DNA of 18,069 bases from Opitutia bacterium (lineage in GTDB: Bacteria; Verrucomicrobiota; Verrucomicrobiia; Opitutales; T3Sed10-336): contig JBJHCF010000063.1 of NCBI GenBank assembly GCA_050506795.1, positions 1 through 18,069 on the forward strand, read 5' to 3'. A model generated the notes under the pieces. That model had not been told where the DNA came from, did no database searches, and worked only from the letters and a program-made list of their open reading frames with translations. A program made the translations under genes and the position numbers. This document shows positions 799 through 16,911 of the stretch, piece by piece (position 1 is the stretch's first letter; every line of letters starts with the position of its first letter).

Positions 799-846
799 GT
801 AGAACACGCTTCCAGCGTGTTGTCTCAGGCTGGAAGCCTAAGCTAC
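799..846. repeat. GTAG-type REP doublet (A unit plus an inverted variant unit)
   Basis: GTAG-AACACGCT-TCC-AGCGTGTT, then the reverse complement of GTAGCTTAGGCTTCCAGCCTGA. Confidence 0.8.
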
Positions 847-934
847 TTCGATCCAGTGCCTTAACCGAGTAGATTCCTATTGGTCCCTCCATTTCACCCT
901 TGATTGGTACCGGCGCCGCTGGGTTAGGGCCTGT

Positions 935-971
935 AAAAGCCGTTTCCACCACCTGCAGGGGGCGGCTTTTT
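935..971. terminator. Putative bidirectional intrinsic terminator between convergent yoeB and the PIN gene
   Basis: AAAAGCCG (935-942) and CGGCTTTT (963-970) form an inverted repeat with A and T tails. Confidence 0.5.
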
Positions 972-983
972 GTTATCAGTGCG

Positions 984-1400
984 TCACCTTCCGGTCTTCG
1001 GCAGCTTGCGAAGGAAATCGACGGGGGAGAGAATCGGGATTTGCCGGTAGTGGCCGAGCGGGAGGAGATGTTTCTTGTCGCCGCTGACAATCGCATCGGC
1101 GTCGGCGGCGTCGGCGCATTCGAGGATAATTTCGTCGAAGGGGTCCGGGGTGGCGCCGGTGGCGCGGTCGATCGGAAAAACCATTTCCGCGGCGTCCTGT
1201 AGCGCGATGACCCAGTCCACGCACTTGCGTTTCGGGTAGTCGAGGCGCAGTTCTTCGAAAACCTCCTGATATTCGGTCAGCAGGGCGGGGCTGATGGAGG
1301 CGGTGACGCGGGCCTCCGCCCACGCGGCCAGGCACTTAAAGGGTGCGCCGCGCCAGAAGCATGCGCTGACCACGACGTTGGTGTCGAAAACGACTCTCAC
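984..1400 (-). CDS. PIN-domain (VapC-like) toxin
   Basis: MRVVFDTNVVVSA...EY...DPFDEIILECA...AIVSGDKKHLL carries the conserved acidic PIN residues; overlaps the upstream antitoxin by 4 nt. Confidence 0.92.
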   Translation of the reverse strand: MRVVFDTNVVVSACFWRGAPFKCLAAWAEARVTASISPALLTEYQEVFEELRLDYPKRKCVDWVIALQDAAEMVFPIDRATGATPDPFDEIILECADAADADAIVSGDKKHLLPLGHYRQIPILSPVDFLRKLPKTGR

Positions 1401-1654
1401 CGGGTGGATTTTCGGCGGACGCGTTTGATGGCTGATTCAAGCGCTTGTTCGTCGTCCGGTGTAATTTCCGGAAGGGAGCGTCCTTCGCGAAGCAGAGCGC
1501 GGACCTGATCCACGGTCAGCGGCCGGCGTTTCCGCATAATAACCATTCCCCCGACGTACCCGACATCCAGTTCATCACCCGGGCCGATTCGCGCCATGTC
1601 CCGGATCGCTGTCGGAATCACCGTCTGTCCTTTGGATGATACTTTAGTAAGCAT
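1397..1654 (-). CDS. AbrB/MazE/SpoVT-family DNA-binding antitoxin (VapB-like)
   Basis: TKVSSKGQTVIPTAIRDMARIGPGDELDV is the AbrB swapped-hairpin signature; lies directly upstream of the PIN gene. Confidence 0.92.
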   Translation of the reverse strand: MLTKVSSKGQTVIPTAIRDMARIGPGDELDVGYVGGMVIMRKRRPLTVDQVRALLREGRSLPEITPDDEQALESAIKRVRRKSTR

Positions 1655-1656
1655 GA

Positions 1657-1689
1657 AGTAAGATTAGGCTTACTGCCTGAGGTTGTCAA
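1657..1689 (-). promoter_or_regulatory. Sigma70-type promoter of the AbrB-PIN operon with a palindromic operator; probably leaderless
   Basis: Minus strand reads TTGACA (1689-1684), 17 nt, TAATCT (1666-1661), 6 nt, ATG. The palindrome AGTAAG-N6-CTTACT (1657-1674) straddles the -10 box. Confidence 0.75.
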
Positions 1690-1818
1690 TAGTTTCAAGG
1701 CAGTCGGCATTCCACCGGGTTTCTTCGCGCCGGCGGAAGACTTTCTCGTTTCCGGATGGTGCCTCTGATCCGTAGTTCAGCTTTGTTATGTTGCTACCAA
1801 ATTTACATAACTCGGAGG

Positions 1819-1904
1819 AATTGGACTCACACGGAGCCACAGAGCTCACGGAGGTGGGTCCTGTAAAAATCTCCGTGACTTTGTGCCTCCGTGTGAGCCC
1901 AATT
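1819..1904. repeat. Long inverted repeat built of CACGGAG/CACAGAG units
   Basis: Arm 1819-1853 AATTGGACTCACACGGAGCCACAGAGCTCACGGAG versus the reverse complement of 1871-1904 AATTGGGCTCACACGGAGGCACAAAGTCACGGAG: 3 mismatches, 1 indel, 17-nt loop. Confidence 0.85.
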
Positions 1905-2030
1905 TTCGCTGTATTTTTTGCTTCATTAAACGATGAACCGCCTTAACCGAGTGGCATTCGCCTTAGGTAAGCTTGCCAAAGTAGGATTAGGCTCTTGACC
2001 AGAATCGGAACGGAAAGAAAACGTATCCTC

Positions 2031-2546: not shown

Positions 2547-2590
2547 GAGTTGACGCGGCTAACAGCCTGTCGGCGAAGCCCGACAAATTC

Positions 2591-2689
2591 CTGGCGAGGC
2601 ATCGCCTCAGACCAAAGTAGCGCACGCATCCTGCGTGCCGAATTCACGCTGGCCTGCGACGAGCTCAGCCCAGTCGAAGCGTGAGCTAC
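2591..2689. repeat. Extended REP doublet (tail + B + A) with a 24-bp insert in the A unit
   Basis: GTAGCGCACGCATCCTGCGTGC at 2617, then TCACGCTGG[2653-2676]AAGCGTGAGCTAC. The tail 2591-2616 is homologous to 16762-16788. Confidence 0.85.
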
Positions 2690-2767
2690 TATTTCTATCG
2701 GATAATCATATAACTTGACTCAACGGTAACGACTTTTCGCTTTTCAGGATACTGGGGCGATGCCTGC

Positions 2768-4174: not shown

Positions 4175-4230
4175 GATCGGGAACCTGGTGTATTGCGGAT
4201 TCGGGGCTGATCACGTGGAGTGCGCAACTC

Positions 4231-4314
4231 GTAGCGCCCTGCTTAAGCGGGCGTTTGTGCGGTGTGCGAACGGCGGTTCCCGGGAAGGGAACTCCGGCTA
4301 AAGCACGGAGCTAC
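4231..4314. repeat. Second-family GTAG REP doublet
   Basis: GTAGCGCCCTGCTTAAGCGGGCG (from 4231) and an inverted unit reading GTAGCTCCGTGCTTTAGCCGGAG on the minus strand (from 4314); stem and loop differ from the main family. Confidence 0.65.
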
Positions 4315-4465
4315 GGGGAGCGGGAGAAAACGTTGGGCATGAGAGGGCGTGTTGTGGTAAGGTGCGCGGCACCCGACTGATGATTCTTGGGTTATTTCCC
4401 GGTGTTTTTATTCCGGTACCGACGGAAAACCTGAGGCGGATTCGATCGGGTGTCTGGAGCCATTT

Positions 4466-6112
4466 ATGCCCAACGATATGGAAACTTTGCTCGCAGCGGG
4501 CTGCAAGGCGCTTGCCGGGGGAGACTGGACGAACGCACGGGAGAATTTTCGGGTGGCTCTGGAGCGGGAGGAATCGGCCGAAGCCTACCACGGTTTGGGC
4601 GAAGCCTCCTGGTGGCTGGGAGACATGGAAGCAACGTTGAGCAATTTCGAGCGGGCCTACGCGGCTTTCCGGCGTCGTCAGGATCCGGCGCGAGCCGTGG
4701 AAATGGCTTTGCGGAACGCGTTGAACGCTTTCAATTACCTCGCCAACGACACCGCGACCGCGGGGTGGCTGGCCAGGGCGGAGAGGTTGATCGAGGCCCA
4801 TGGGCTCGGGGACTTGCGGGGCGAACTGTTGGTGATGCGTTCGAGCTGTTCGGAGGATTCCACCGCGGCCGAACGGTATGCCCTGGAGGCTTTGGAGTTG
4901 GCCCGGGCAACGGAGGATCCCGATCTGGAACTCTGGTCGCTCAGCAGTATGGGGGCGGCGCTGGTTGGGCAGGGCCGGGTGAAGGAGGGGCTATCTTTGC
5001 TGGACGAAGCGTTTGCCGGATCGCTTGCGGGTGAGGGACGACGGCTTGAGACGGTGGTGTTCACCAGTTGTGAGTTGATGAATTCTTGCGCGCGCTGCGC
5101 CGCGTTCGAACGAGCCGTGGAATGTATTCAAGTGGCCGAACGATTCGCCCGCCGGTTCGGCTGTCCATTTCTCTACAGCGAGTGCCGGGTGGTTTACGGA
5201 GAGGTCTTGCTGGCGACGGGAGATTGGCCGACGGCGGAGCGGGAATTGAAGAAGGGAATCGAGCTCTCGCGGGATTCCGTGCCGGCGTACCATGCCTGGG
5301 CGGTCGCGCTTTTGGCGGATCTGCGTCTCGCCCAGGGGAGGATCGAAGAAGCCGAGCGATTGGTGGCCGGACTCGAGGGTTTCGCTGTGACCGTGCCGAC
5401 GATCGCCCGGGTCCAGCTCTTACGGGGCGATCCCGATCTGGCCGCGTTGACAGTTGAGCGGCGCCTTGATGCGATCGGCGAGGAACCGCTTGAAAGCGTT
5501 CGTTTATTGGAACTGCTGGGTGAGACGGAAATCGCACGCGGCAAACGGGAGGTCGCCGCTGAACGCGCCCGGGGGTTGGTCGAGCGGGGTAACGCTAACA
5601 AATGTCAACTGATCACCGCTCGCGGCGAACGCCTTTTGGGGGCCTGTTCGCCCGAGGATGACACCGCGGCAGCGCGACGCCATTTCGACGCTGCGCTGTC
5701 TGAGTTTGTGCGATTGAACATGCCCTACGAGACTGGCCGAACCCGTCTCCTTTTGGCCATGTGTCTGCGCGGATCGGAACCCGGGGTGGCGCAGGTGGAA
5801 GCCCGCGCCGCGTTAACCACCCTGGACGGACTGGGGGCCATCCGGGATGCCGACGCGGCATCCCGGCTTCTCAGACAATTGGGCGTTCGGGCGACGCGCT
5901 CGTCCCCTCCTGGTCTCCAGCCCCTAACCAAACGGGAACGCGAGGTTTTTGTTTTGTTGGGCGAGGGGCTCTCCAATCCCGAGATCGCCCAAAGGCTGTT
6001 TATCAGCCGCAAGACCGTCGAACACCATGTCGGCCACATCCTCGGCAAACTCGACCTGAAAAGTCGCGCCCAAGCCGCGGCCGAAGCAGTGAGACGGGTT
6101 ATACCCGACTAA
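4466..6112 (+). CDS. TPR-repeat transcriptional regulator with C-terminal LuxR HTH
   Basis: Ala/Leu-rich helical repeats; the C-terminal LTKREREVFVLLGEGLSNPEIAQRLFISRKTVEHHVGHILGKLDLKSR is a LuxR/GerE HTH. Confidence 0.92.
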   Translation: MPNDMETLLAAGCKALAGGDWTNARENFRVALEREESAEAYHGLGEASWWLGDMEATLSNFERAYAAFRRRQDPARAVEMALRNALNAFNYLANDTATAGWLARAERLIEAHGLGDLRGELLVMRSSCSEDSTAAERYALEALELARATEDPDLELWSLSSMGAALVGQGRVKEGLSLLDEAFAGSLAGEGRRLETVVFTSCELMNSCARCAAFERAVECIQVAERFARRFGCPFLYSECRVVYGEVLLATGDWPTAERELKKGIELSRDSVPAYHAWAVALLADLRLAQGRIEEAERLVAGLEGFAVTVPTIARVQLLRGDPDLAALTVERRLDAIGEEPLESVRLLELLGETEIARGKREVAAERARGLVERGNANKCQLITARGERLLGACSPEDDTAAARRHFDAALSEFVRLNMPYETGRTRLLLAMCLRGSEPGVAQVEARAALTTLDGLGAIRDADAASRLLRQLGVRATRSSPPGLQPLTKREREVFVLLGEGLSNPEIAQRLFISRKTVEHHVGHILGKLDLKSRAQAAAEAVRRVIPD

Positions 6113-6180
6113 GCTGTGCGGCACGTTTGTGGCGGTGGATCGAAGGAGTTTAGGCTTATCGGAATCCCGTCGGCCCTTCC

Positions 6181-6302
6181 CCTGGAGGGCCATGCTCTCG
6201 CATGGCCGGGGTCGTCCCGAGCGGAAGTGGGGACCCGTTCCCTTCGCAACGGTCGCTTCCGGGACCACACCTTACGGCGGCACGGGAGCGCCTCCCTCCA
6301 GG
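6181..6302. repeat. GGAG-type REP-like doublet (third family, right unit degenerate)
   Basis: CCTGGAGGG (6181-6189) and CCCTCCAGG (6294-6302) are inverted ends; the left unit is GGAG followed by the hairpin GGCCATGC-TCTC-GCATGGCC. Confidence 0.55.
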
Positions 6303-6329
6303 AGGTGTTGGCGCAGAATTCACTGAAAA

Positions 6330-6374
6330 ATAGGGGAGTTCCCCGATGCGGGGAGGCGCTGGAACGATTATGAT
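6330..6374 (+). promoter_or_regulatory. Candidate activator box and -10 element for the TPR/monooxygenase genes
   Basis: 18-bp imperfect palindrome ATAGGGGAGTTCCCCGAT (6330-6347), TATGAT at 6369-6374, and SD AAGGAGG before ATG 6422. Confidence 0.55.
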
Positions 6375-6421
6375 TGGGCGGAGGAATTGGCGAAATTGGA
6401 TCAAAATGAAAGGAGGCTACG

Positions 6422-8110
6422 ATGAACGCTCTACACAGAATGAAATCCATTGCCGTGCGTTGCCGGAACATTTTGCCGGTTTTTGGAAAACTGTTGAACC
6501 CGAGGCTCGTCCCAACGAGTTGGCGACGGGACCGAGGTCCGTATTGTGCCCGAACCATTGTCGGTATTCTGTTCCTGAGTTCGGCCTGGATGTTAGCGGG
6601 CTGCGACGATGACGAACACGGACATGCCCGGCAGGCCGCGGACCACGGCCATGAAGCGCGGCATGGGGTGGTTAATTTCCCGATTTCCGGTAATGCGCAG
6701 GCTCATGAGGAATTTGAAACGGGCTTGGGTCACCTGCACCACATGATGTACGAGCAGGCTCGGCCCCATTTTGAAGCGGCGGCCGAGGCTGACCCGGATT
6801 GCGCCATGGCGCATTGGGGCATTGCCATGACCAGCTTTCAACCGCTCTGGCATCCGACGCCGGACGAAGGTTTGGAGCGCGGTAAGGCGGCCGTGGCGAA
6901 AGCTCGGGAACTCGGCGCACCGACGGAGCGCGAAGAGATGTATATCGCCGCCGTGGAGGCCTTCTTCACCGATCCGGATCCCGCCCGGGAAAGCCGGGCT
7001 GGCGATCACGAAGCACGGGTGAGGGCCTGGATGGAGGCCCAACGGGAATTGCACGAGGCGTACCCGGACGATGTGGACGCCGGGGCCTTTTATGCACTGG
7101 CGGAAGTCTGTTATGCCATGACCCAGTTCTCGCCGCGGGAAGAACGGGATTATACCCGCGAACGGCGGGCCGGGGCGCTCATTGAAGAGTATTTCGAAGA
7201 CCATCCGGAACATCCCGGACTCTTCCATTACCTGATCCACGCCTACGACAGCCCGGCATTGGCGCCCAAGGCGGAGGAAGTGGCCCGCGGCTACGACAAA
7301 CTGGCGCCCGATACGGTTCACGCCCTGCACATGCCGAGCCATATATTTGTCCGGCTCGGCCACTGGGAGGAAACGGCCGAGTGGAACGAACGTTCGGCGG
7401 CGGCCGCGCTGCGCGAGTGGGAAGAGGATTTTCATGCCAGCGCGCACTACGTGCACGCACTGGACTACATGATGTACGCCTACCTGCAAATGGGCGAAGA
7501 GGAAAAGGCCCGCGAGACGCTCGAACGGGTGCGGGGCGTGGACGAAATGTGGACCGCTCACTTTGCCGGCTACAACATCGCCGCCCCCCAGGCCCGGTAT
7601 TTCCTGGAGCAGGGAAAATGGGAAGAAGCCGCCAATTTGGAAACGGGGAAACCCGACGTCCTGCCCTGGGAGGATTTCCCGGCGGCCGAGTCGCTCATTT
7701 TTTATGCGCGCGGACTGGGTTCGGCGCGGACCGGCGACCTGGATCAGGCCGAGGTCGAACGGGACCGGATTCGCGAGCGCGTGGCGGCCCTGCGCGAGGA
7801 CGGGGATCTCTATTGGGCGTACATGACCGAGGCGCTCGGCGACGCCGTGGCGGCGTGGATTTTGTACGAGCGAGGTGAAACGGAGGACGCGCTTGCGCTG
7901 ATGAGCGACGCCGCCGACCTCGAGGATTCCATGGACAAACACCCCACCTCCCCCGGCGAGGTTTTCCCCGTGAGAGAACTCTACGGTGAGTTGCTGCTGA
8001 AAGAGGGGCGTTTTGACGAAGCGCGCGCGGAGTTCGAAGCATCGTTGGCACGTACGCCAAACCGTCGCAACGCCCTGGCCGCTCTCGAGCAAACCCTGGC
8101 CGCGCGATAA
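6422..8110 (+). CDS. TPR-like helical-repeat protein, probable lipoprotein, His-rich
   Basis: Strong SD; hydrophobic stretch ending in a LAG-C lipobox (Cys61); motifs DPDCAMAHWGIAM, HPGLFHYLIHAYD, HALHMPSHIF, HALDY. Confidence 0.85.
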   Translation: MNALHRMKSIAVRCRNILPVFGKLLNPRLVPTSWRRDRGPYCARTIVGILFLSSAWMLAGCDDDEHGHARQAADHGHEARHGVVNFPISGNAQAHEEFETGLGHLHHMMYEQARPHFEAAAEADPDCAMAHWGIAMTSFQPLWHPTPDEGLERGKAAVAKARELGAPTEREEMYIAAVEAFFTDPDPARESRAGDHEARVRAWMEAQRELHEAYPDDVDAGAFYALAEVCYAMTQFSPREERDYTRERRAGALIEEYFEDHPEHPGLFHYLIHAYDSPALAPKAEEVARGYDKLAPDTVHALHMPSHIFVRLGHWEETAEWNERSAAAALREWEEDFHASAHYVHALDYMMYAYLQMGEEEKARETLERVRGVDEMWTAHFAGYNIAAPQARYFLEQGKWEEAANLETGKPDVLPWEDFPAAESLIFYARGLGSARTGDLDQAEVERDRIRERVAALREDGDLYWAYMTEALGDAVAAWILYERGETEDALALMSDAADLEDSMDKHPTSPGEVFPVRELYGELLLKEGRFDEARAEFEASLARTPNRRNALAALEQTLAAR

Positions 8111-8138
8111 TAGGGAGAATACTACGTTTAAGTAAAAA

Positions 8139-8250
8139 GTAGATCACGCTTCTCCCGGCAAGCACGGGACTTCGCATGATGCTCAGCAGAGGAGTGAGTT
8201 TCGCACGCAAGATGCGTGCACTACTTCGGGTCTGATGCTTCGCCTCGCTG
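8139..8250. repeat. Extended REP doublet (A + B + tail) with a 37-bp insert in the A unit
   Basis: GTAGATCACGCTTCT...[8158-8194]TGAGTTTCGCACGCAAGATGCGTGCACTAC plus tail; apart from the insert it closely matches the reverse complement of 16762-16842. Confidence 0.85.
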
Positions 8251-8269
8251 TGATAAGGGAGACAAAACG

Positions 8270-9451
8270 ATGAAACCGTCCATTGATGAGAAGTTGTTTA
8301 ACAAGGCCCGGGATCTGGAGCCGCTGATCCGTGAACACACCGACCAGACCGAACGCAACCGGCGGCCGGCCGAAGCGGTGATGGAGGGCCTGCGGGATGC
8401 CGGACTCCAGCGGATGTTCGTCCCCAGATCCCTGGGCGGGCACGAGGTGGATCCGGTGACGTACGCGCGGGTGGCGGAGGTCATCGCGGGTTTCGACAGC
8501 GTGGCGGGCTGGGCCTTGCAGCTTGGCAATCACGTTGCCTGGTGGTGTGCCCGGCTGCCCGGGGAAGGGGTGGAAGCGATTTATGGAAAGGGACCCGATG
8601 TCCCCATCGCCGCCGCCTTCCATCCGCCTCTGAAAGCGGTCGAGGAAAACGGCGGGTACCGCCTCACCGGCCGGGCGCCCCTGGCGAGCAACATCCACAA
8701 TGCCGACTGGCTGTTGCTGAGCGGGATGGTCATGGAGGGAGACCAGCCCAGAATGTCCGATGGCGCTCCCGAACTCCTCCAACTCATCGTTCGTCGAAAC
8801 GAGGTGGACATTCACGATACCTGGCACGCCCTGGGAATGCGCGGGACAGACAGCAATGATGTGGCCGTGGACGGTGTCCCGGTTCCGGCGGAGCGAGTCT
8901 TTCCGCTCGCCCCGGAATTCGAGCCGGGATTGCATTACAAGGGGCCGCTTTACCGGTTTCCGGGGACGGGCGCGGTGGTGACCATTTTCACTCCGGTACT
9001 GCTGGCGATCGGGCAGGGGGCCATCGACGAGTTCAAGGCGCTGGCCCTGGAGAAGACGCCCATGGGCTACGCCCGAAAACTCCGTGAGCGCACGCTCGTT
9101 CAGGCGACCCTGGCTCGCGCCGAAGCCATGCTGCGTTCGGCGCGATCGTTCTTCCACGAAACGATTTCCGAGGCCTGGGAACGAACTCTGAACGGCGAAC
9201 CGTTCACCCTCGACCGGAACGCCGACCTGCTCCTGGCGGGAACGCACGCGGGACAAACCGCCGCGAAAGTCGCCGAAATGCTGCACAATCTAGCAGGAAC
9301 CTCCGGCATCTACACCTCCAGTCGCCTGGAACGCCTCTTCCGCGACGCCCACACCCTGCGCCACCACGGATTCGTCTCGGCGAACCGCTTCGAAACGGTC
9401 GGCCAGGTCCGGCTCGGAGTAGAACCGGAATTTCCCTTCGTGAGGATTTGA
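8270..9451 (+). CDS. Acyl-CoA dehydrogenase-fold flavin-dependent monooxygenase (HsaA-like)
   Basis: GLQRMFVPRSLGGHE, GGYRLTGR, DTWHALGMRGTDSNDV, AGTSGIY, LERLFRDAH. SD GGGAG before ATG 8270; the longer ORF start (8216) lies inside the repeat. Confidence 0.88.
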   Translation: MKPSIDEKLFNKARDLEPLIREHTDQTERNRRPAEAVMEGLRDAGLQRMFVPRSLGGHEVDPVTYARVAEVIAGFDSVAGWALQLGNHVAWWCARLPGEGVEAIYGKGPDVPIAAAFHPPLKAVEENGGYRLTGRAPLASNIHNADWLLLSGMVMEGDQPRMSDGAPELLQLIVRRNEVDIHDTWHALGMRGTDSNDVAVDGVPVPAERVFPLAPEFEPGLHYKGPLYRFPGTGAVVTIFTPVLLAIGQGAIDEFKALALEKTPMGYARKLRERTLVQATLARAEAMLRSARSFFHETISEAWERTLNGEPFTLDRNADLLLAGTHAGQTAAKVAEMLHNLAGTSGIYTSSRLERLFRDAHTLRHHGFVSANRFETVGQVRLGVEPEFPFVRI

Positions 9452-9485
9452 TCCTATAGCGAATGACACTCGGTTTGGGCAAAAA

Positions 9486-9621
9486 GTAGAACACGCATCC
9501 AGCGTGTTGTCTCACGCAGGATGCGTGCCCTACTTCGAGCCAGTGTGCTTGCCCAAGGAAGATTTGCCTATAGTAGTTCACGCTTCCAGCGTGAGTTTTG
9601 CACGCAGGATGCGTGCGCTAC
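9486..9621. repeat. Two REP doublets (9486-9533 and 9573-9621)
   Basis: GTAGAACACGCATCCAGCGTGTT...CACGCAGGATGCGTGCCCTAC; GTAGTTCACGCTTCCAGCGTGAG...GCACGCAGGATGCGTGCGCTAC. Confidence 0.9.
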
Positions 9622-9749
9622 TACGGCTCACACTCTTCCGACACAATCGCTTTCATCGTATAGCTCCAACGATTACGTTTTTAGCAGTAGAATATGTACT
9701 GCATTTCTTTCTTAACCTCAGGGGTAAAACGCCCAATATTTAGGTCAGT

Positions 9750-10358
9750 ATGCAAAATACTGATGAAATAGATGCGCGACGTTTAACTCTGGCTGAGGTC
9801 GCTCAGATTCAGGCGGGTTACCTGAGTCGCGAGCGGGTTGAGGTTGTGGCGGAGGGCACGCATCGGTTGCTTCTGGCGAGAGATGTTTCTGAAGGACAAG
9901 GGGTTCGGGCTGAGGATGCGATACGGTTTTTTCCGGAACGGAATCCGGAGCCTTACCAGGTGGAGGCGGGTGATGTCCTGCTGGTGGCGAGGGGGCAGGT
10001 TCACGGAGCGCACCTCATTGAGGAGGATTTGCCCAACACGCTCGCTTCGAGCGTCTTCTACATTTTGCGCCCGCGGCGGGAGTCCGTTCTCCCGGCGTAC
10101 CTCACCTGGTGGCTCAATCAGCCGGACGTCCAGGCGGAAATCAATGCCGGGGCCGGGGGTACGGGGATCAGCTACTTGGGGCGTCAGGCAGTGGAGCGGC
10201 TGGGGGTGGCGGTTCCGCCATTGTCGTTGCAGCAACGGGTTGTTGAGGTAATGGATCTCTTCCGTCGCGGGAAAGCGCTGCAAACCGCCATCGAAGAACG
10301 GCGGGAACTGCTGGTCCAATCTATCTGCAAGAATGCCATTCTATCCACTATTGACTAA
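9750..10358 (+). CDS. Short type I R-M specificity-subunit-like protein (single TRD + helix)
   Basis: TLAEVAQIQAG...GDVLLVARG...LPAYLTWWLNQP...LGVAVPPLSLQQRVV resembles one HsdS half. Confidence 0.8.
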   Translation: MQNTDEIDARRLTLAEVAQIQAGYLSRERVEVVAEGTHRLLLARDVSEGQGVRAEDAIRFFPERNPEPYQVEAGDVLLVARGQVHGAHLIEEDLPNTLASSVFYILRPRRESVLPAYLTWWLNQPDVQAEINAGAGGTGISYLGRQAVERLGVAVPPLSLQQRVVEVMDLFRRGKALQTAIEERRELLVQSICKNAILSTID

Positions 10359-10456
10359 ATAGCAACATATTATGAAACGGCCCTCAAACTTTCGATGCTC
10401 TCCTGTCTCCGGAATTCCGCGCATTTCGCACAGAGTTTTCGAAAGGGTGCATCATA

Positions 10457-10504
10457 GTAGTGCACGCATCCTGCGTGCGGATTCACGCTGGAAGCGTGAG
10501 CTAC
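10457..10504. repeat. REP doublet (B + A)
   Basis: GTAGTGCACGCATCCTGCGTGCG-GAT-TCACGCTGGAAGCGTGAGCTAC. Confidence 0.9.
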
Positions 10505-10579
10505 TTCTCCCACCGAACGGCCTCCCCGGAGAACAGGCTGCAGTAACACCGCGAAACTTGCATATGGGCGAAAAACCTT

Positions 10580-10627
10580 TCCATATTGAAGGCAGCCTTT
10601 AATATGGAGCCAAAATTCTTCCATATT
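10580..10627. promoter_or_regulatory. Palindromic operator-like element upstream of the Fic gene
   Basis: TCCATATT-G-AAGGC-A-GCCTT-T-AATATGGA (10580-10608) plus a third half-site TCCATATT at 10620-10627. Confidence 0.5.
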
Positions 10628-10641
10628 AAACTTTCCCAACG

Positions 10642-11847
10642 ATGAACCCGACGGATCCAACCTTTGCTGCGGAACGCCCCCGAGCCGGGCGCTACATTCG
10701 CCAACCGACCGGCTACCGGGCGTTCTATCCGTCGCCTCTTCCGCCGGACCCTCCGATCAGGCTTGAGGGCGAACTCCAGGCGTTGCTTTCGGCCGCTGAC
10801 CGGGCACTCGGCCGCCTTGATGGATCGATTCAGACCCTCCCCAATCCGGATCTTTTCGTTTTCATGTACGTGCGAAAGGAGGCGGTTCTCTCCAGTCAGA
10901 TCGAGGGCACCCAGAGCTCGCTGCAGGATGTGCTTGCCGCGGAAGCGCAGATTCTTACGCCCGGGCTCCCTCGCGATGTCGGGGAAGTGGTCAACTACGT
11001 CACGGCGATGAACTACGGCCTCGACAGGCTGGCGGGGATGCCGATTTCCGTGAGGTTGATCCGAGAGATCCATGAACACCTTCTCAAGGGAGTCCGTGGC
11101 GCCCATCTCACGCCCGGAGAGTTGCGGCGTTCGCAAAATTGGATCGGTCCGGGCGACTGTTCCCTCAACGAGGCGACCTTCGTTCCGCCACCACCCCATG
11201 AAGTTCCCGAGGCGCTGGGGGCTCTGGAGCAATTCCTCAACTCTCCAAGCGACCTGCCGCAGCTCATTCAGATCGGTCTCGCGCACGCCCAATTCAAGAC
11301 CGTTCACCCGTTTCTTGACGGCAACGGCCGGGTAGGCCGTCTCTTGATCACGTTTCTTCTCTGCCAGCGGGAGATTCTCGTGAAGCCGGTCCTGTACCTG
11401 TCCCATTTTTTCAAAAAGCACCGCGCCGAGTATTACGAACGCCTCCAGGCCGTTCGCGACGAGGGAGACTGGGAGGGATGGCTCGCCTTCTTCCTGCGCG
11501 GGATTGCCGCGGTCAGTAAGGAAGCGACGGAGACCGCACGTCGGATCCTCCTCCTTCGCGAAGAACATCGCGCGGACGTGACGTCGGGCCTTGGGCGCTC
11601 CGCCGCGAACGGACACCTAGTACTCGAGCACCTCTACCGGCGTCCCATTCTCTCTGTGATCGATGTGCGGACCCTGACAGGCACCTCCTATGCGGCGGCC
11701 AATAACCTGGTATCTCGAATGGGAGAGCTTGGGATCTTGCAGGAAATCACCGGCAACAAACGCAACCGCCAATTCCGCTACCAACCGTATATTGATATCT
11801 TTGGCGAGAATCGTCCGGAGGAAAATGAATCCGAGAACCCGCAATGA
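10642..11847 (+). CDS. Fic-family protein with N-terminal autoinhibitory motif and C-terminal HTH-like region
   Basis: Canonical HPFLDGNGRVGR; SSQIEG fits the (S/T)xxxE(G/N) inhibitory helix; C-terminal LQEITGNKRNRQFRYQPY. Confidence 0.95.
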   Translation: MNPTDPTFAAERPRAGRYIRQPTGYRAFYPSPLPPDPPIRLEGELQALLSAADRALGRLDGSIQTLPNPDLFVFMYVRKEAVLSSQIEGTQSSLQDVLAAEAQILTPGLPRDVGEVVNYVTAMNYGLDRLAGMPISVRLIREIHEHLLKGVRGAHLTPGELRRSQNWIGPGDCSLNEATFVPPPPHEVPEALGALEQFLNSPSDLPQLIQIGLAHAQFKTVHPFLDGNGRVGRLLITFLLCQREILVKPVLYLSHFFKKHRAEYYERLQAVRDEGDWEGWLAFFLRGIAAVSKEATETARRILLLREEHRADVTSGLGRSAANGHLVLEHLYRRPILSVIDVRTLTGTSYAAANNLVSRMGELGILQEITGNKRNRQFRYQPYIDIFGENRPEENESENPQ

Positions 11848-11867
11848 AAAGGATGTTCATTCACAAA

Positions 11868-11980
11868 GTAGCTCACGCTTCCAGCGTGAATCGCTCGCAC
11901 GCAAGATGCGTGCCCTACTTCCTCCACGCTACCAGCGTGAAACAACAACACTCAAGCTGCACGCAGGATGCGTGCCCTAC
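11868..11980. repeat. Two REP doublets (11868-11918 and 11925-11980, the second lacking its 5' GTAG)
   Basis: GTAGCTCACGCTTCCAGCGTGA...CGCACGCAAGATGCGTGCCCTAC; CACGCTACCAGCGTGA...GCACGCAGGATGCGTGCCCTAC. Confidence 0.9.
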
Positions 11981-12073
11981 TTCCTGCTTCTACGCATGAA
12001 TTTGAATTAGGGAATTGCGACGTACCTTAAGAAAACAATTGAAATACCGAATATCAGTAGTTAGACAGTCATT

Positions 12074-12667
12074 ATGAAAATCGACGCGAACCGGTTGGAG
12101 GAGGCGTTCTCCCTTTTGGGGGATCTTCTTGCTGCGCGCCAGCGTCCGGCCTCCCATTTTGTTGTGTGCGGCGGGTCGTCGCTGATTGCCCTCGGAATGG
12201 TCAATCGTTCGGTGACGCGTGATGTCGATGTCCTGGCCTCTATCGTCGATGGCGAGCTTTTGTCGCCGCGACCGCTACCCGATTGGTTTTTGGAGGATGC
12301 GGAAGACGTTCGCAGTCAACTGGACCTGCCACACGAGTGGATTAATGCGGGACCGGCCGACGATTCCTTTTTTCGCTTTGGCTTTCCCGAAGGGCTGGCG
12401 TCGCGACTGACGGAAAGAACTTTCGGTCCGGTATTCACGGTCAGTTTTATCAGCCGGTACGACCAGATTCACTTTAAGCTCTACGCCGCGGCGGACACGG
12501 GCCCCGGGCGCCATTTTCAGGACCTGCGGGATCTCCGGCCGAATCCTGAAGAATTGCTGGCCGCGGCGCGCTGGACCGTGGAGCACGACCCCTCCGAGGG
12601 CTTCAGGCTGGTGCTCGGACAACTTCTCGAACATCTCGGATATGGAGACCTCATTAACCAAATTTAA
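12074..12667 (+). CDS. Putative nucleotidyltransferase (DUF6036/AbiEii-like, Pol-beta superfamily)
   Basis: VVCGGSSL...VTRDVDVL fits the hGG..DxD NTase motif; downstream WINAGP, KLYA and HFQDL motifs. Confidence 0.8.
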   Translation: MKIDANRLEEAFSLLGDLLAARQRPASHFVVCGGSSLIALGMVNRSVTRDVDVLASIVDGELLSPRPLPDWFLEDAEDVRSQLDLPHEWINAGPADDSFFRFGFPEGLASRLTERTFGPVFTVSFISRYDQIHFKLYAAADTGPGRHFQDLRDLRPNPEELLAAARWTVEHDPSEGFRLVLGQLLEHLGYGDLINQI

Positions 12668-13643
12668 GGACCGCTTCCATGATCTGACGGTGTCATTCCT
12701 CTGGCGCCAGTGGTCCGCGCTGGGCGTCTCCGGTTATGCCCATATGGAGGACCGGCGGGTTATTGATCCCGAAGCGTTGCTCTTGTTCTCGACCGGGGCG
12801 GCACGATACGATTCGAGACTCTTCGACGAAATCCTCGACTGGCTTCAGCAAAACGGCGAATGGATCAACATCCAGCGGCTGTCGCGTATTCAAGCACTCC
12901 ATCAGATCGCCGAGCCCACGATCCTGGCTGCCATCGGCGACTTTCTTTCCCAACAGTCCGAACATCGAAAATGGAAGAGCCTCACGCGGAAAATCCGTCC
13001 CCTCGCGGAGCCGTGTCCCCTCTTTATTGAGCTGCCGGCCTATGGGAAACGGGATGAAACCTTTCTACGCTGGGGATGGGAGCGTAACCCGCCGCAAACC
13101 CGTGGGATGAGCCGGTTTCCTCCGGTCGGCGTTTGCACCTCGCTTCTTTTCAAGCTGCGTGCCCTGTTCGGAACCCAGTCGCGCGCCGACATCATCGGAT
13201 GGCTCCTAACCCACGAGTCCGGTCACCCGGCGGCCATTGCCAGGGAACTCGGATATTTCCCGCGCTCGGTTCAACTCGTGCTCAATGACCTGGCCCAATC
13301 CGGTCACATCCAAACACTGCGGGCGGGTCGGGAAAAACACTTTTCCGTTCGCCATGATGAATGGCGCTTTCTCGTTACCTGGCCGGAACCGTCAAAATTC
13401 CCTGAATGGGAAGACTGGACAGGCCGGTTTGCCGTTCTTCGACGAGCCGCCGGCCTGATCGATCGTCCGGATCTGGATCAGCTTTCCGTTGAAGTGCAGG
13501 CGATTGAAATGAAAAAGATTCTCGACCCCGCCGCTTACACGAGGACCGCACCCGGCCACTCGTTTGACCCGCCGCGGAACGAATTGAAAGGTGAGGATTC
13601 CCTCGTGGCCAGCGTCCGTGTTCTGAACCGCCTTTTCTCGTAG
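12642..13643 (+). CDS. Hypothetical protein with probable internal winged HTH; partner of the NTase
   Basis: Overlaps the NTase gene by 26 nt; RADIIGWLLTHESGHPAAIARELGYFPRSVQLVLNDLAQSGHI looks like a wHTH; N-terminal domain not recognised. Confidence 0.75.
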   Translation: METSLTKFKDRFHDLTVSFLWRQWSALGVSGYAHMEDRRVIDPEALLLFSTGAARYDSRLFDEILDWLQQNGEWINIQRLSRIQALHQIAEPTILAAIGDFLSQQSEHRKWKSLTRKIRPLAEPCPLFIELPAYGKRDETFLRWGWERNPPQTRGMSRFPPVGVCTSLLFKLRALFGTQSRADIIGWLLTHESGHPAAIARELGYFPRSVQLVLNDLAQSGHIQTLRAGREKHFSVRHDEWRFLVTWPEPSKFPEWEDWTGRFAVLRRAAGLIDRPDLDQLSVEVQAIEMKKILDPAAYTRTAPGHSFDPPRNELKGEDSLVASVRVLNRLFS

Positions 13644-13706
13644 TACGCTTAACGGTATTTTCAGCTCTTCAGAAAATGATCGAGACGCCACTGATGAAAC
13701 GCCGAA

Positions 13707-13757
13707 GTAGCTCACGCTTCCAGCGTGAATGGTTCGCACGCAGGATGCGTGCGCTAC
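13707..13757. repeat. REP doublet (A + B)
   Basis: GTAGCTCACGCTTCCAGCGTGA-ATGGTT-CGCACGCAGGATGCGTGCGCTAC. Confidence 0.9.
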
Positions 13758-13816
13758 TTCAGGCCGCGCTTCACAAGGAATTGAATAACCCCCTTCATCG
13801 AACTTCTACTTTCCTC

Positions 13817-15379
13817 ATGACCGACACCACCACCCAAAAGCAAATCAACGAAATCCTCTGGCAGGCTTGTGACACGTTTCGCGGGACGCTGGATCCGACG
13901 CAGTACAAGGATTATATCCTGGTGACGCTTTTCTTGAAATACCTGTCGGATCTCTGGAAGGACAAGCGCGAAAAGTATGAAAAGCAATACAAGGGCGACG
14001 CTAAACGGGTCGAGCGGGCGTTGCGCCGGGAGCGGTTCGTGGTGCCGACGGTGGAATTGAAGGATCGTAACGGAAAAGTGGAGGATGCGTTTCCGGCAAC
14101 ATTCGACAGTCTCTACGAGCGGCGCACGCGGTCCAACCTCGGGGAGCTGATCAACATCACGCTCGAAGCGATCGAGGACGCCAACAAGACGAAACTCGAA
14201 AACGTCTTCCGCAACATCGACTTCAACTCCGAGCCGAATCTCGGGCAGGCGAAGGACCGCAACCGGCGGCTGAACCACCTGTTGGAGGACTTCGCCAAAC
14301 CTCAGCTCGACCTGCGCCCCAGCCGGATCGGCAATAACGACGTCATCGGCGACGCCTACGAATACCTCATCAGCCGCTTCGCCGCCGACTCGGGCAAGAA
14401 AGGCGGCGAGTTCTACACGCCGGGCGAGGTGGCCACGCTTCTCGCGAAACTGCTCAAGGCGAAGCCCGGGGACACCATCTGCGACCCAGCCTGCGGGTCC
14501 GGCTCGCTGCTCATCCGCGTCGCGAAGGAAGTCGATTCCGACAACTTCGCCCTCTACGGGCAGGAATCCAACGGCAGCACCTGGGCGCTCTGCCGGATGA
14601 ACATGTTCCTCCACGCCATGGACAACGCCCGCGTCGAGTGGTGCAACACCATCACCAGCCCCCACCTGGTGGAAGGCGACCGCCTGCTCAAGTTCAACAT
14701 CGTCGTGGCCAATCCGCCCTTCTCCCTCGACAAATGGGGCCAGGACCACGCCGAAAATGACCCCTACAACCGCTTCTGGCGCGGCATCCCGCCCAAGAGC
14801 AAAGGCGACTACGCCTTCATCAGCCACATGGTGGAAACCGCCCTCGAAGACGAAGGCCGCGTCGGCGTCATCGTCCCGCACGGCGTCCTGTTCCGCGGTG
14901 GGGCCGAAGGCAAAACCCGTCAGAAACTGATCGAGGACAATCTCATCGAAGCCATCATCGGCCTGCCCGCCTACCTCTTCTTCGGCACCGGAATTCCCAC
15001 CGCCATCCTCATCCTCAACAAATCCCGCAAACCCTGGACCAAAGCCCGCTCCCGCCGGGACAAACACGTCCTCTTCATCGACGCCAGCCGCGAGTTCGAA
15101 GACGGCAAGAACCAGAACCGCCTCCGCCAAGCGGACATCAATAAAATCGTCGGGACCTACGACAAATTCGAAGCCGTCGAGAAATACGCCCACCCGGCCA
15201 CTCTGGAGGAGATCAAGGAGAACGAATTCAACCTCAACATCCCCCGCTACGTGGACACGTTCGAACCCGAACCCGAAGTGGACATCCCCGCCGTGCGGAA
15301 AGAGATCAAGGAACTGGAAAAAGAACTCGCCCAGGTCGAACGCGAGTTGGAGGGGCACTTGAAGGAGTTGGGATGGTGA
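13817..15379 (+). CDS. hsdM: Type I R-M DNA methyltransferase subunit M (520 aa)
   Basis: LWQACDTFRG..YKDYIL, GEFYTP, motif I DPACGSG, motif IV NPPF, PHGVLFRG and FNLNIPRYVDT. ATG 13817 chosen because the longer ORF's N-terminus is read through the REP. Confidence 0.97.
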   Translation: MTDTTTQKQINEILWQACDTFRGTLDPTQYKDYILVTLFLKYLSDLWKDKREKYEKQYKGDAKRVERALRRERFVVPTVELKDRNGKVEDAFPATFDSLYERRTRSNLGELINITLEAIEDANKTKLENVFRNIDFNSEPNLGQAKDRNRRLNHLLEDFAKPQLDLRPSRIGNNDVIGDAYEYLISRFAADSGKKGGEFYTPGEVATLLAKLLKAKPGDTICDPACGSGSLLIRVAKEVDSDNFALYGQESNGSTWALCRMNMFLHAMDNARVEWCNTITSPHLVEGDRLLKFNIVVANPPFSLDKWGQDHAENDPYNRFWRGIPPKSKGDYAFISHMVETALEDEGRVGVIVPHGVLFRGGAEGKTRQKLIEDNLIEAIIGLPAYLFFGTGIPTAILILNKSRKPWTKARSRRDKHVLFIDASREFEDGKNQNRLRQADINKIVGTYDKFEAVEKYAHPATLEEIKENEFNLNIPRYVDTFEPEPEVDIPAVRKEIKELEKELAQVERELEGHLKELGW

Positions 15380-15390
15380 AAACGAAAAAA

Positions 15391-15563
15391 GTAGCTCACG
15401 CTTCTAGCGGCAAGCACGGGACTTCGCATGAGGCTCAGCAGGGGCGTGAATGGGGAATCGCCCAAAGTAGCTCACGCTTCCAGCGTGAGTCCGAAACCCT
15501 CAAAGTAGATCACGCTTCTAGCGTGATTCAGAAAACCGCACACACGCAAGATGCGTGCGCTAC
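15391..15563. repeat. REP cluster: three tandem A units (first with a 37-bp insert) and one inverted B unit
   Basis: GTAG starts at 15391, 15467 and 15505; CACGCAAGATGCGTGCGCTAC ends at 15563. Confidence 0.9.
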
Positions 15564-15578
15564 TTCAGGTACCGCGTA

Positions 15579-16832
15579 ATGAATCACGATAACTCCAAAT
15601 GGCCTAATATGCCCATCGGGGATCTGCTCACGATGGTCCGACGTCCTGTGCCGGTGAAAAAGGACGCGACGTACCGAGAGATCGGTATCCGAAGTCATTG
15701 TAAAGGCATCTTTCACAAGCCTGAAACGACGGGGAAACTAATCGGGGACAAGCGAGTCTTTTGGGTCGAACCCAATTGCCTGGTCCTGAATATAGTTTTC
15801 GCCTGGGAACAGGCCGTGGCAATCACCAGCGATGCGGAGAAAGGCATGATCGCTTCGCACCGATTTCCCATGTTCCGTTCACGGAACGGAAAATTGCTTC
15901 CAGAATAGGCCTGGCGCTATTTCTCGTCACCTCGCGGAAAATACGATCTGAACATTGCTTCACCCTGGGGAGCCGGTCGAAACAAGACTCTTGGACAGGA
16001 GGAGTTTAAGCGACTGAAGATCCCCGTGCCTCCAGTCGAGTATCAGCGGAGGGTGGTGGATATCCTCGCCACCGTCGACCGGGCGATTGACCAAACTCAA
16101 AAGCTCATTGCAGCCAAGCGAAAGCTAAAGAATGGGATTGCCGAGGAGTTGCTGAGTGGGAGGAAGCGGCTTCCAAGATATTCAAGTGAATGGAGATGGA
16201 ATCGTTTCAGCGAAATAGCTACTATACGGCGTGGGGCGTCTCCGCGACCTATCGGAGCGCCCCAATGGTTTTCTGAGAAGGGGCGAGGTTGGGTGCGAAT
16301 TGCGGACGTGACGAAGAGCAAGCCGTTTCTCCGCGAAACCTCTCAATTTCTTTCAAAGGAAGGTGCTGCTAGGAGTGTCTCGGTCGATCCTGGAGATTTG
16401 ATCATGTCTATATGTGCGACGATTGGTGTTCCCCGCATTGTGGAAATACCTGCCTGTATCCATGACGGATTTGTAGTTTTTCGAAACTACGAGAATAAAC
16501 TCGATCGATGGTTCCTTTATCACTACCTCGACTTCATTGCTTCCAGATTATCCTATGGCGGTCAAGCAGGAACGCAAAGCAACTTGAATACCGGACTCGT
16601 TGGCAAAACACGGCTTCCATTGCCCTCCATCGATGAGCAGAATTGTATCGTTGCTGTACTTGACGCAGCTGACCAGCATATCGCTCAGATGGAAAAGAAG
16701 CTCACCGCTCTGCGTGAATTGAAAAGGGGACTGATGGAAACGATGCTGACTCAGAACATAACTGGCGAGACGAAGCCTCAGGCCCGAAGTAGCGCACGCA
16801 TCTTGCGTGCGAAACTCACGCTGGAAGCGTGA
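15579..16832 (+). pseudogene. hsdS: Type I R-M specificity subunit S interrupted by an in-frame TAG (15906-15908)
   Basis: ORFs 15555-15908 and 16026-16832 share a frame, and the gap is open (LLPE*AWRYFSSPRGKYDL...LKIPVPPVEYQRR). Two TRDs, each followed by a P-P..EQ-type conserved helix. Confidence 0.9.
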
Positions 16833-16837
16833 TCTAC
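16762..16837. repeat. Extended REP doublet (tail + B + A), uninterrupted; overlaps the hsdS 3' end
   Basis: CTGGCGAGACGAAGCCTCAGGCCCGAA-GTAGCGCACGCATCTTGCGTGCG-AAAC-TCACGCTGGAAGCGTGATCTAC. Confidence 0.9.
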
Positions 16838-16911
16838 TTTTTCGATTCTAGAAACATGACTCAACGACAACAAGTTTTTCGGATTTCAGCCCTCTACTCA
16901 GAAGAATACGC

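Follow-up and report, generated by a model that had tools for sequence, protein, structure and literature searches.

An 18,069-nucleotide stretch of an Opitutia bacterium genome, here called the window, carries hairpin repeats of one REP family at its gene junctions, several of them between defence genes. Do these repeats delimit exchangeable defence modules, or did they settle in an operon that already held its genes? The window is contig C63 of the source genome (G000, an assembly 97.8% complete), and a second contig of that genome, C16, bears on the answer.

REP units at the locus and in the genome

GTAG-tagged hairpin arms number 23 at nine sites and, with one GTAG-less hairpin, make up about 24 units (Table 1), in agreement with a sequence-only reading that had counted about 24 units of one family at nine intergenic sites. 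The strict REP pattern had no occurrence in 500 shuffles of the window. Of seven pieces folded, six have z scores between -3.7 and -6.3; the seventh, at 8135-8230, is the loop-insert variant and has z -1.8. Both REP features, a GT[AG]G tetranucleotide 5′ of the hairpin and inverted doublets (REPINs), are present. Cluster orientation and composition differ from junction to junction, and a 36-nt exact match that includes spacer is common to two operon junctions, evidence of probable copying between them.

Table 1. Genes, REP sites and other elements of the window and the RAYT on C16
Feature	Position	Strand	GTAG arms (site)	Match or remark
REP doublet within ~100-bp dispersed composite element (type b), 3′ of yoeB	799..846	.	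799/846 (1)	
Type-a dispersed element, doublet 2617-2689 with loop insert, at hyp183/rtcB	2590..2755	+	2617/2689 (2)	
Partial type-a element with loop insert, at TPR/acd	8139..8252	-	8139/8224 (3)	
Type-b doublet 9486-9533 and second doublet 9573-9621	9486..9621	.	9486/9533 + 9573/9621 (4)	R-M operon left border
hsdS′, single-TRD hsdS-like gene	9750..10358	+		PADLOC Specificity_I
REP doublet at hsdS′/Fic	10457..10504	.	10457/10504 (5)	Crossed by ORF 10372-10602
Fic (SoFic-like), cargo	10642..11847	+		Pfam Fic/Fic_N; PADLOC SoFic
REP cluster 11868-11980 at Fic/NTase	11844..11999	+	11868/11918/11980 (6)	
Hairpin without GTAG	~11925			
Nucleotidyltransferase (NTase) and overlapping partner	12074..13643	+		NTase: weak DUF6036 match
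REP doublet at wHTH/hsdM	13707..13757	.	13707/13757 (7)	In-frame open from ATG 13676 into hsdM
hsdM	13817..15379	+		Profile and PADLOC searches
68-codon bridge ORF over four-unit REP cluster 15391-15563	15373..15579	+	15391/15467/15505/15563 (8)	Overlaps hsdM stop and hsdS start
hsdS	15579..16832	+		In-frame TAG at 15906-15908; C-terminus runs into REP
Type-a element (doublet 16789-16837) at hsdS/PDC-S54	16762..16897	+	16789/16837 (9)	Bridge frame 16829-16915
PDC-S54, candidate defence gene	16912..17942	+		PADLOC PDC-S54, E 1e-99; broken by IS
9-bp target duplication	17934..17942	+		Recurs beside IS end on C16
Multicopy IS end, breaking the assembly	17943..18069	+		
RAYT	C16:89395-89982	-		Between two REP triplets

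All seven non-overlapping gene junctions between 8110 and 16912 bear a REP, as had been claimed. Left of 8110, other genome-wide repeat families stand in its place at AbrB/hyp183, rtcB/luxR and luxR/TPR, and this half of the window holds mostly non-defence genes. It had also been claimed that coupled pairs stay intact. This holds for three overlapping REP-free pairs, yefM-yoeB, AbrB-PIN and NTase-wHTH (the label wHTH is that of the earlier reading; the gene has no family match for it). It is no general rule, because junctions coupled in REP-free homologues received REPs: hsdR is coupled to its next gene in 23 of 25 such homologues and hsdM in 55 of 78, and both junction types hold REPs in G000.

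The genome-wide count, which the earlier reading had proposed, gave 83 units. A 25-kb locus making up 0.5% of the genome contains 32 of them (39%), an enrichment of about 89-fold. The dispersed elements end in CYAG and CTAG (23 and 21 copies), ends consistent with CT cleavage by a RAYT, an enzyme activity that is itself predicted. Dispersed sites showed no significant clustering by contig overall (P 0.16); an excess on C18 (P 0.004) is common to another repeat family too. The doublet was found in none of 400 other genomes of the class, and 6 of 11 genomes of the family have single units. In 12 stretches of G003 such units are scattered, and none of these stretches gave a match to operon genes.

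The RAYT in the type I R-M operon

Through the IS and its 9-bp target duplication, the window is linked to C16, which carries a DprA-like gene, a RAYT, hsdR and M48 (DprA and RAYT starts were set by homology). Because the contig carries on across the IS with this duplication, the cognate RAYT lies inside the type I R-M operon, in which hsdM, hsdS and hsdR are all present and whose order is hsdS′-Fic-NTase-wHTH-hsdM-hsdS-PDC-S54-DprA-like-RAYT-hsdR-M48. Among 13 Y1 loci checked, this is the only RAYT locus flanked by the REP family. The earlier reading had recognized the REP architecture of RAYT/TnpA-REP and advised a search for a RAYT flanked by the same REPs; the GTAG hairpin doublets and the RAYT between triplets in the same operon bear it out.

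The RAYT has the motifs NHVH, WQ and YILDNP, which in a motif comparison loosely fit both subclass 2.4 and subclass 2.7 of Quentin 2018. It matches PF01797 above the cut-off, NF047646 at 70 bits (below the cut-off of 80) and 4er8 at E 0.007. As described in PMC3116915, PMC6006769 and PMC8266576, the REPtron or RAYT-REPIN system (E. coli TnpA-REP, PDB 4er8) is alike in its GTAG plus hairpin and its inverted doublets. The likeness extends to REP clusters flanking a RAYT with NHVH, WQ and YxxxNP, and to dispersed ends CYAG and CTAG. The G000 system differs in three ways: its units number just 83, with 39% of these in the 25 kb surrounding the RAYT; the RAYT stands within a patchily distributed R-M operon; and the clusters lie inside open frames. 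RAYTs have been described as staying in one extragenic space (10.1101/2021.07.10.451892). No RAYT-R-M link was found in Bertels 2017, where "restriction" occurs only in the reference list.

Around 46 related RAYTs, REP sites per 100 kb fall with growing distance from 15.5 to 4.4, 3.2 and 1.9. The G000 locus is denser than all 46, with 8 sites at 0.4-10 kb (counted from coordinates, IS length ignored) versus a maximum of 5, and its REPs end sharply at M48 on one side and extend about 19 kb on the other. The data did not support a restriction of REPs to the transcription unit of the RAYT (22 observed, 19.9 expected, P 0.28, with crude ORF calls). Of 80 RAYTs, 22 have R-M genes no more than 2 kb away, a partly circular figure, since those loci had supplied the queries and a single Eco57I-fusion family accounts for many of them. 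In one related locus, L030, the RAYT sits within a housekeeping run (trmB-like, EamA, ymdB, DUF480, xseA) and shows the same multi-junction REP pattern. In L027, L033, L036, L038 and L039, R-M ORFs contain the extra REP sites.

Open frames, cargo and relatives

From hsdM to M48, six consecutive junctions are each crossed by one open frame that links the stop of the first gene with the start of the second through the REP cluster; starting at hsdM, the clusters are therefore not intergenic in the strict sense. In G000 a single bridge ORF is thus found at 6 of 9 junctions (P between 3.5e-5 and 0.014 in five window settings with gene ends fixed, the coupling windows having first been chosen after the data were seen), and 3 of 9 are without one. 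The overlaps vary (-4, -1, -8, longer, or in-frame fusion), with no fixed -4 spacing. At Fic/NTase the frame begins in the Fic stop (ATGA) and stops before the NTase upstream region. In the relative G006, bridges span hsdM/hsdS and hsdR/M48, two of its four complete REP-bearing junctions, with different REP content; none was found at the L030 junction doublets. That the bridges are remnants of former gene ends is unconvincing on inspection, and a promoter scan of the locus was uninformative. Most surviving REP insertions appear to keep an open frame between neighbour genes, and these frames would be translated.

Two known arrangements come close. Mycobacterial MIRUs are described as repeats at start codons whose internal ORF is coupled to the next gene, minimising insertion cost (Supply 1997 via PMC12548453). 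Like them, the repeats here carry an ORF coupled to neighbours at the six bridged junctions; as set against that account, they differ in being RAYT-linked REPs with bridges of different length and sequence at each junction and no one fixed -4 design. In-frame intragenic REPs are described for subclass 2.4 TnpA-REP (PMC6006769) and as GTAG repeats of Opitutus terrae (PMC3733652). These share the frame-preserving insertions and the PVC-group setting, but the present repeats lie where genes meet, and either extend the N-terminus of a gene or form a bridge ORF of their own.

The cargo of the operon is also found where the REPs are not. Among 91 homologous R-M loci without these REPs, Fic occurs in 7, PDC-S54 in 5 and NTase-wHTH in 2 (L103 and L119). 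hsdM and hsdR are more than 1.9 kb apart in 31 of 35 REP-free loci, and a DprA-like gene stands 5′ of an hsdR in 2 of 8 homologue loci, with no GTAG hairpin. Homologue counts were 2 for hsdM, 1 for hsdR and 0 for M48 of 80, all distant. The backbone of hsdS′, hsdM, hsdS, hsdR and M48 with passengers is the same in REP-free copies; hsdS′-hsdM cargo and junction REPs are peculiar to G000 and G006. hsdS′ is the usual first gene of the family (73 of 92 hsdM loci), and its junction with hsdM is closed (at most 129 nt) in 72 of 73 homologous loci. The Fic-NTase-wHTH block splits it only in G000 and G006, with a REP at both ends in both, and its insertion goes back to one event in their ancestry.

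G006 has the same order from hsdS′ to PDC-S54, with no REP at Fic/NTase or at hsdS/PDC-S54, where the genes overlap by ATGA and PDC-S54 is uninterrupted (419 aa). The conserved neighbours hyp183/rtcB in G006 and TPR/acd in G002 also have no REP between them, giving four orthologous junctions without REP (two in the operon, two in the left half). An assembly gap in G006 takes in the 5′ half of hsdR, and the RAYT too is absent from that assembly. In assembled contigs of three runs, a 6.6-kb piece over 8206-14827 is identical to the window, and none of the 15 joints listed, out of 68, is REP-to-REP; as contigs drop rare variants and X1 may be the source sample, this weighs neither for nor against exchange.

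Explanations for the pile-up and their meaning

The best overall explanation, with a probability of about 0.7, is that a RAYT seeded REPs locally and that insertions sparing coupling survived. A RAYT (TnpA-REP, HUH/Y1 nuclease) and its REPs would have moved into a type I R-M operon with translational coupling, in an ancestor of the G000 and G006 copies, and seeded doublets preferentially nearby. REPs would pile up at nearly every operon junction because the spreading enzyme sits in the operon. Insertions within genes, or breaking coupling, would have been purged; survivors would lie just 3′ of old coupled start codons, with an open frame that either runs on into the following gene or stops at its start codon. 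Younger composite elements of about 140 bp and 100 bp would hop genome-wide, with four landings in the left part and one at hsdS/PDC-S54. The RAYT flanked by the same REPs within the operon, the distance decay and the REP-free orthologous junctions argue for seeding, which presumes gain of REPs, with two related operon copies found and gain versus loss not polarised between them. The excess density relative to the 46 loci and the sharp stop at M48, which simple distance decay does not explain, speak against it. As part of this explanation, the cargo genes would probably be ordinary type I R-M passengers for whose arrival REPs were unnecessary, and the REPs look like latecomers rather than the limits of exchangeable defence cassettes.

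Compatible with local seeding, although in itself unlikely, is that REPs which arrived in this way served occasionally as recombination points for RAYT or RecA, with no dedicated cassette system, and so moved Fic-NTase-wHTH upstream of hsdM or fixed the operon border. Those two breakpoints and the copying suggested by the 36-nt match favour it. In REP-free L119, L123 and L126, Fic and NTase-wHTH lie directly 3′ of hsdM, and therefore a local block move suffices. Against it, the block is a single event, no rearrangement breakpoint can be placed to the base, and a tandem duplication in REP-rich L030 ends away from REPs.

It is quite unlikely that RAYTs in R-M operons generally serve as recombinases of single strands and carry defence genes bounded by REPs into and within the operon as attC-free cassettes, with translated bridges passing on coupling and the Fic-NTase-wHTH block as one product. 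For this locus, it is very unlikely that the RAYT runs a cassette system, like an integron without attC, by cutting single strands at REPs and joining them anew, with the genes between REPs leaving as circles and being inserted elsewhere. Such a system would account for the REP-flanked block between hsdS′ and hsdM and for hsdS, which is wholly different in G000 and G006 with its left boundary in a REP cluster. In addition, rtcB abuts hlyIII directly in G011, and G000 similarity to that spacer begins near the last REP, in a weak alignment; the right border of the operon falls at a REP in a similarly weak one. TnpA-REP is reported in PMC8266576 to cleave and transfer strands in vitro, at times at distant sites. 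However, the right boundary of hsdS is REP-free in G006, the left breakpoint 3′ of rtcB holds another repeat family, and G009, which runs from hyp183 to hlyIII without rtcB, has no REP at the join. The comparison of relatives proposed earlier therefore yielded four empty junctions and divided breakpoints: the block and right border are compatible with exchange at REPs, and the absence of rtcB, the hsdS right end and the left border are not. The REP-free orthologous junctions and the same cargo in REP-free operons also speak against exchangeable modules. Cluster orientation and composition vary, the block reflects one ancestral event, ordinary genes flank the dispersed sites (1 of 61 TA-like), and extra sites by R-M-linked RAYTs were not significantly enriched (7.7 vs 5.0 per 100 kb, P 0.14). 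The locus shares with integrons co-oriented accessory genes with repeats between them and a DNA-processing enzyme nearby, but it lacks IntI and a uniform, single site for each gene, and shows no demonstrable gain or loss at repeats. The integron-like array proposed earlier is not supported, as units are not bounded by a site everywhere and no tyrosine recombinase family was among the locus ORFs scanned outside the IS interior.

A regulatory role, with mRNA stability or the passage of ribosomes, and hence the methylase/nuclease ratio, set by the hairpins and bridge ORFs, is highly improbable: REP positions are kept at 7 junctions or borders across two genera (G000 and G006) and frames are preserved, but unit number, type and length vary freely between the two, the 91 homologous loci do without REPs, and the G000 operon shows apparent decay, with subunits not intact (the hsdS stop, and 12 aa missing from the N-terminal region of HsdR relative to 12 aligned homologues) and the IS in PDC-S54. 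That the genome is merely saturated with this REP, the alternative once offered, is almost certainly wrong, for although several other repeat families are plentiful, 14 sites lie in 24,969 bp versus 31 in the remaining 4.92 Mb (one per 159 kb), and 19 of 71 strict units are inside the window.

Repeats at all junctions of a defence locus thus do not, on their own, point to a cassette array. The cassette reading, if true, would give RAYTs a host function, a long-standing question; a role of TnpA-REP in prochlorosin diversification has been proposed, by authors who state that a causal link is not established (10.1101/2020.03.09.984088). REP dissemination is called poorly understood in PMC8266576, and for the spread of REPs in vivo this locus is a compact test case, with one RAYT, a steep local REP pile-up, empty orthologous junctions, a dispersed element of ~140 bp sharply bounded by CYAG and CTAG, and a clear survival rule in a coupled operon.

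REP units and the transposase of the operon

Nine sites in the window together carry 23 hairpin arms tagged with GTAG, and there is one degenerate hairpin besides, which agrees with the sequence-only reading of about 24 units of one family at nine sites. The strict REP unit (GTAG plus a hairpin) does not occur in 500 shuffles of the window, and the REP array is real and far above chance. As that reading had also described, REPs are found at all seven of the non-overlapping junctions between 8110 and 16912 and at none of the three overlapping gene pairs. The left part of the window carries yefM-yoeB, PIN/AbrB, an unknown ORF of 183 aa (hyp183), rtcB, a LuxR-TPR regulator, a TPR protein and the acyl-CoA dehydrogenase-like acd, and the right part carries hsdS' (with one TRD), Fic, an NTase and its partner (labelled wHTH), hsdM, hsdS and PDC-S54.

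The source genome (G000; 4.94 Mb in 82 contigs) holds the window as one complete contig, C63, which is its densest contig for repeats. When three other repeat families are counted, some repeat is present at every non-overlapping junction from yoeB on. The loops of some REP units hold short foreign hairpin inserts of two or three kinds, which recur across G000 and the related genomes G002, G003 and G006. On contig C3, 48 repeat units at a single site are possibly a CRISPR array.

C63 and contig C16 both terminate in ends of one IS, and the same 9 bases adjoin the IS on either side. A second copy of the IS (C45/C28) obeys the same 9-bp rule; ends of this multicopy IS, with 9-bp target duplications, lie at C16, C18, C25, C28 and C45, where the assembly is broken. 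We infer from the 9-bp duplication, rather than from an assembled join, that C63, the IS and C16 are adjacent. The C16 side then contains, in order, the remainder of PDC-S54, a DprA-like gene, a Y1 transposase between REP triplets, hsdR and an M48 protease gene, with REPs at each junction, and terminates at a TrhA/hlyIII gene. The transposase features the motifs NHVH, WQ and YILDNP, and scores 70 bits against the model for REP-associated tyrosine transposases (RAYTs), below its cut-off of 80. No other Y1 locus among the 13 checked has the operon REP on its flanks. A RAYT bordered by matching REPs, the search for which followed from the sequence-only reading, is found inside the operon, on the inferred C16 side. 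Its closest named relative, in an Opitutales MAG (69%), is flanked by the same REP; that locus has no match to the operon genes, and no distal REP sites within 12.5 kb. Hits of this kind suggest that the host belongs to the Verrucomicrobiota.

Coordinates of features in the window and in related loci
Sequence	Position	Feature
Window	1819-1961	other repeat family, about 54 sites genome-wide
Window	4217-4321	other repeat family, about 66 sites genome-wide
Window	6126-6304	other repeat family, about 55 sites genome-wide
Window	2648-2682; 8150-8197; 15405-15445	hairpin inserts in REP loops
L098 (G006 operon)	4455-4505; 6330-6440	hairpin inserts in REP loops
Window	9684-9702	repeat/palindrome motif upstream of hsdS', conserved in G006; possibly an operator
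Window	10557-10630	repeat/palindrome motif upstream of Fic, conserved in G006; possibly an operator
Window; L194 (G002)	9460-9545; ~2105-2145	type-b left arm retained after acd in G002, GTAG-to-CTAC doublet absent; possible base-level REPIN empty site
Window; C16	15531-15566; ~85015-85050	36-nt exact match
Window	15906-15908	in-frame TAG in hsdS
Window	17943-18069	IS end
L017 (on C16)	~16860	HsdR deletion
L024; L030	1677-3752; 8222-10368	xseA (exonuclease VII large subunit) with in-frame RAYT and REP insertion, two MAGs
L125	13617-14285	unrelated RAYT-like gene (22%) between hsdS/DUF3800 and hsdR of a homologous operon; other junctions repeat-free

Reading frames across the junctions

A single frame spans the junction at hsdM/hsdS, hsdS/PDC-S54, PDC-S54/DprA, DprA/RAYT, RAYT/hsdR and hsdR/M48. 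These bridge frames start -7 to +3 nt from the upstream stop, cross the spacer, and finish on the downstream start or fuse in frame to the next gene. At hsdS/PDC-S54, the doublet of inverted units is mostly read by the C-terminus of hsdS itself. A single bridge is absent at hsdS'/Fic, Fic/NTase and wHTH/hsdM, although some frame crosses each cluster. Bridges at six of nine junctions give P 1.2e-4 with gene ends fixed and interiors shuffled, and 2.8e-4 with frame scrambling, for windows first set after inspecting the data and for DprA and RAYT starts placed by homology. Across five window settings P ranges from 3.5e-5 to 0.014, and the strictest setting passes 4/9. G006 keeps bridges across 372 nt at hsdM/hsdS and 245 nt at hsdR/M48, and has none at the remaining two REP junctions that are complete in its assembly. 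Read-through from a coupled start is seen at 10/13 operon junctions versus 3/29 gene ends elsewhere, a contrast that is confounded because the operon junctions were coupled ancestrally (hsdR to the next gene in 23/25, hsdM to the next gene in 55/78).

The most likely mechanism, to which we give a probability of about 0.7, is that the resident RAYT would copy REP units into its own neighbourhood, and selection on the coupled operon would leave only insertions near junctions that preserve the frame; translation of the bridges is putative.

Gene order in relatives and the state of the operon

Among 92 related hsdM loci, pooled from two sets (12 and 80), the operon REP is found in one, L098 of G006 (a genome of the same family but a different genus; hsdM 92%), whose operon holds 10 of the 21 strict units of that genome. 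Gene order there is identical to that of G000, and at seven junctions or borders REPs occur in corresponding positions, though their number and spacing differ. The operon RAYT was not found in G006, where an assembly gap also takes the 5' half of hsdR.

In 72 of the 73 loci, hsdS' and hsdM are no more than 129 nt apart. L098 alone departs from this: there, as in the window, Fic-NTase-wHTH lies between the two genes with a REP at either end. This insertion is one ancestral event. The sequence-only proposal that REPs placed Fic and the NTase pair in the R-M operon is in line with the REPs at both block ends in G000 and L098, and is weakened by the single event and by the same cargo in REP-free loci. 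That occasional recombination at operon REPs moved one block is improbable.

A dedicated cassette system, with REPs as borders of exchangeable modules, is less probable still. This single block points towards it, and hsdS, wholly different in G000 and G006, has its left boundary within a REP cluster, but in G006 a REP is missing from the right boundary. Likewise, rtcB adjoins hlyIII in G011, an empty site for the luxR-to-M48 segment, and similarity to the G011 spacer starts near the last REP in a weak alignment, but the left breakpoint carries another repeat. Orthologous junctions also lack REPs: Fic/NTase and hsdS/PDC-S54 in G006 (the latter a plain ATGA overlap), hyp183/rtcB in G006, and TPR/acd in G002. 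In G009, hyp183 is joined to hlyIII with neither rtcB nor a REP at the join. The 91 REP-free loci include Fic in 7, NTase-wHTH in 2 and PDC-S54 in 5; hsdM lies more than 1.9 kb from hsdR in 31/35 loci, and DprA-like homologues are found upstream of an hsdR in 2/8 loci, with the GTAG hairpin absent. This means that the repeats come and go at fixed gene junctions and that cargo moves without them, which leaves the modular borders of the sequence-only reading largely unsupported.

The operon of G000 now shows signs of decay: hsdS has an in-frame TAG where homologues have a sense codon, the N-terminal region of HsdR has a 12-residue in-frame deletion relative to 12 aligned homologues, and PDC-S54 is interrupted by the IS. 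The TAG is also present in contig X1, which may be the source sample.

Dispersed copies and spread around related RAYTs

A loose pattern search of G000 finds 83 REP units; the window accounts for 21 of them and the final 7 kb of C16 for 11. Saturation of the genome with REPs, the alternative in the sequence-only reading, is ruled out by this genome-wide count, with 14 sites in the 24,969 bp of the locus and 31 in the remaining 4,917,672 bp, where the density per base is about 89-fold lower.

Composite elements of about 140 bp (type a) and 100 bp (type b) cover 30 of the 31 dispersed sites and all 4 REP sites in the left part of the window, and flanks are unique at 9 of 10 operon sites (the exception is site 16789). 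TnpA-REP is reported to cleave at CT (PMC8266576), and the type a termini, starting with CYAG (23 copies) and ending with CTAG (21 copies), are in line with such cleavage. A Pfam family could be assigned at E 1e-8 to 42 of the 61 ORFs beside dispersed sites; these neighbours are ordinary genes, such as secA, lnt, prs, a DegP-like protease, lactate/malate dehydrogenase and glycosidases, with a PIN toxin among them. The exact match between the hsdM/hsdS junction and the right border of the operon, spacer included, suggests copying inside the operon.

REPs are detectable at 46 of 80 related RAYT loci, and the 35 distal sites around these 46 RAYTs thin out with distance, with 15.5 per 100 kb at 0.4-2 kb and then 4.4, 3.2 and 1.9 farther away. 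In L030, doublets lie at several junctions of the housekeeping run surrounding the RAYT inserted in xseA; one of its five distal sites derives from a 347-bp duplication, and bridge frames are absent there. Relatives of the operon RAYT are inserted in frame into HsdR (EcoEI type), Eco57I-type enzymes and a DUF4391 protein (L027, L033, L036, L038, L039 and others), and these five named loci have additional REP sites within R-M ORFs; the L033 operon also has DarTG. The window locus is the densest of those compared, with REPs lopsided about the RAYT. Neither confinement of REPs to the RAYT transcription unit (P 0.28) nor a rise in REP density near RAYTs with R-M linkage (P 0.14) is supported.

A literature search of titles and abstracts, with few subscription papers, on RAYT with R-M, REP with coupling, TnpA-REP with cassettes or defence, and RAYT with defence islands did not find this arrangement; the supplements of PMC6006769 and PMC3733652 may list such loci. 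Local REP spread around RAYTs appears to be general, and the locus described here is a RAYT-REP system whose insertions, lying in an R-M operon, are MIRU-like and preserve the frame.
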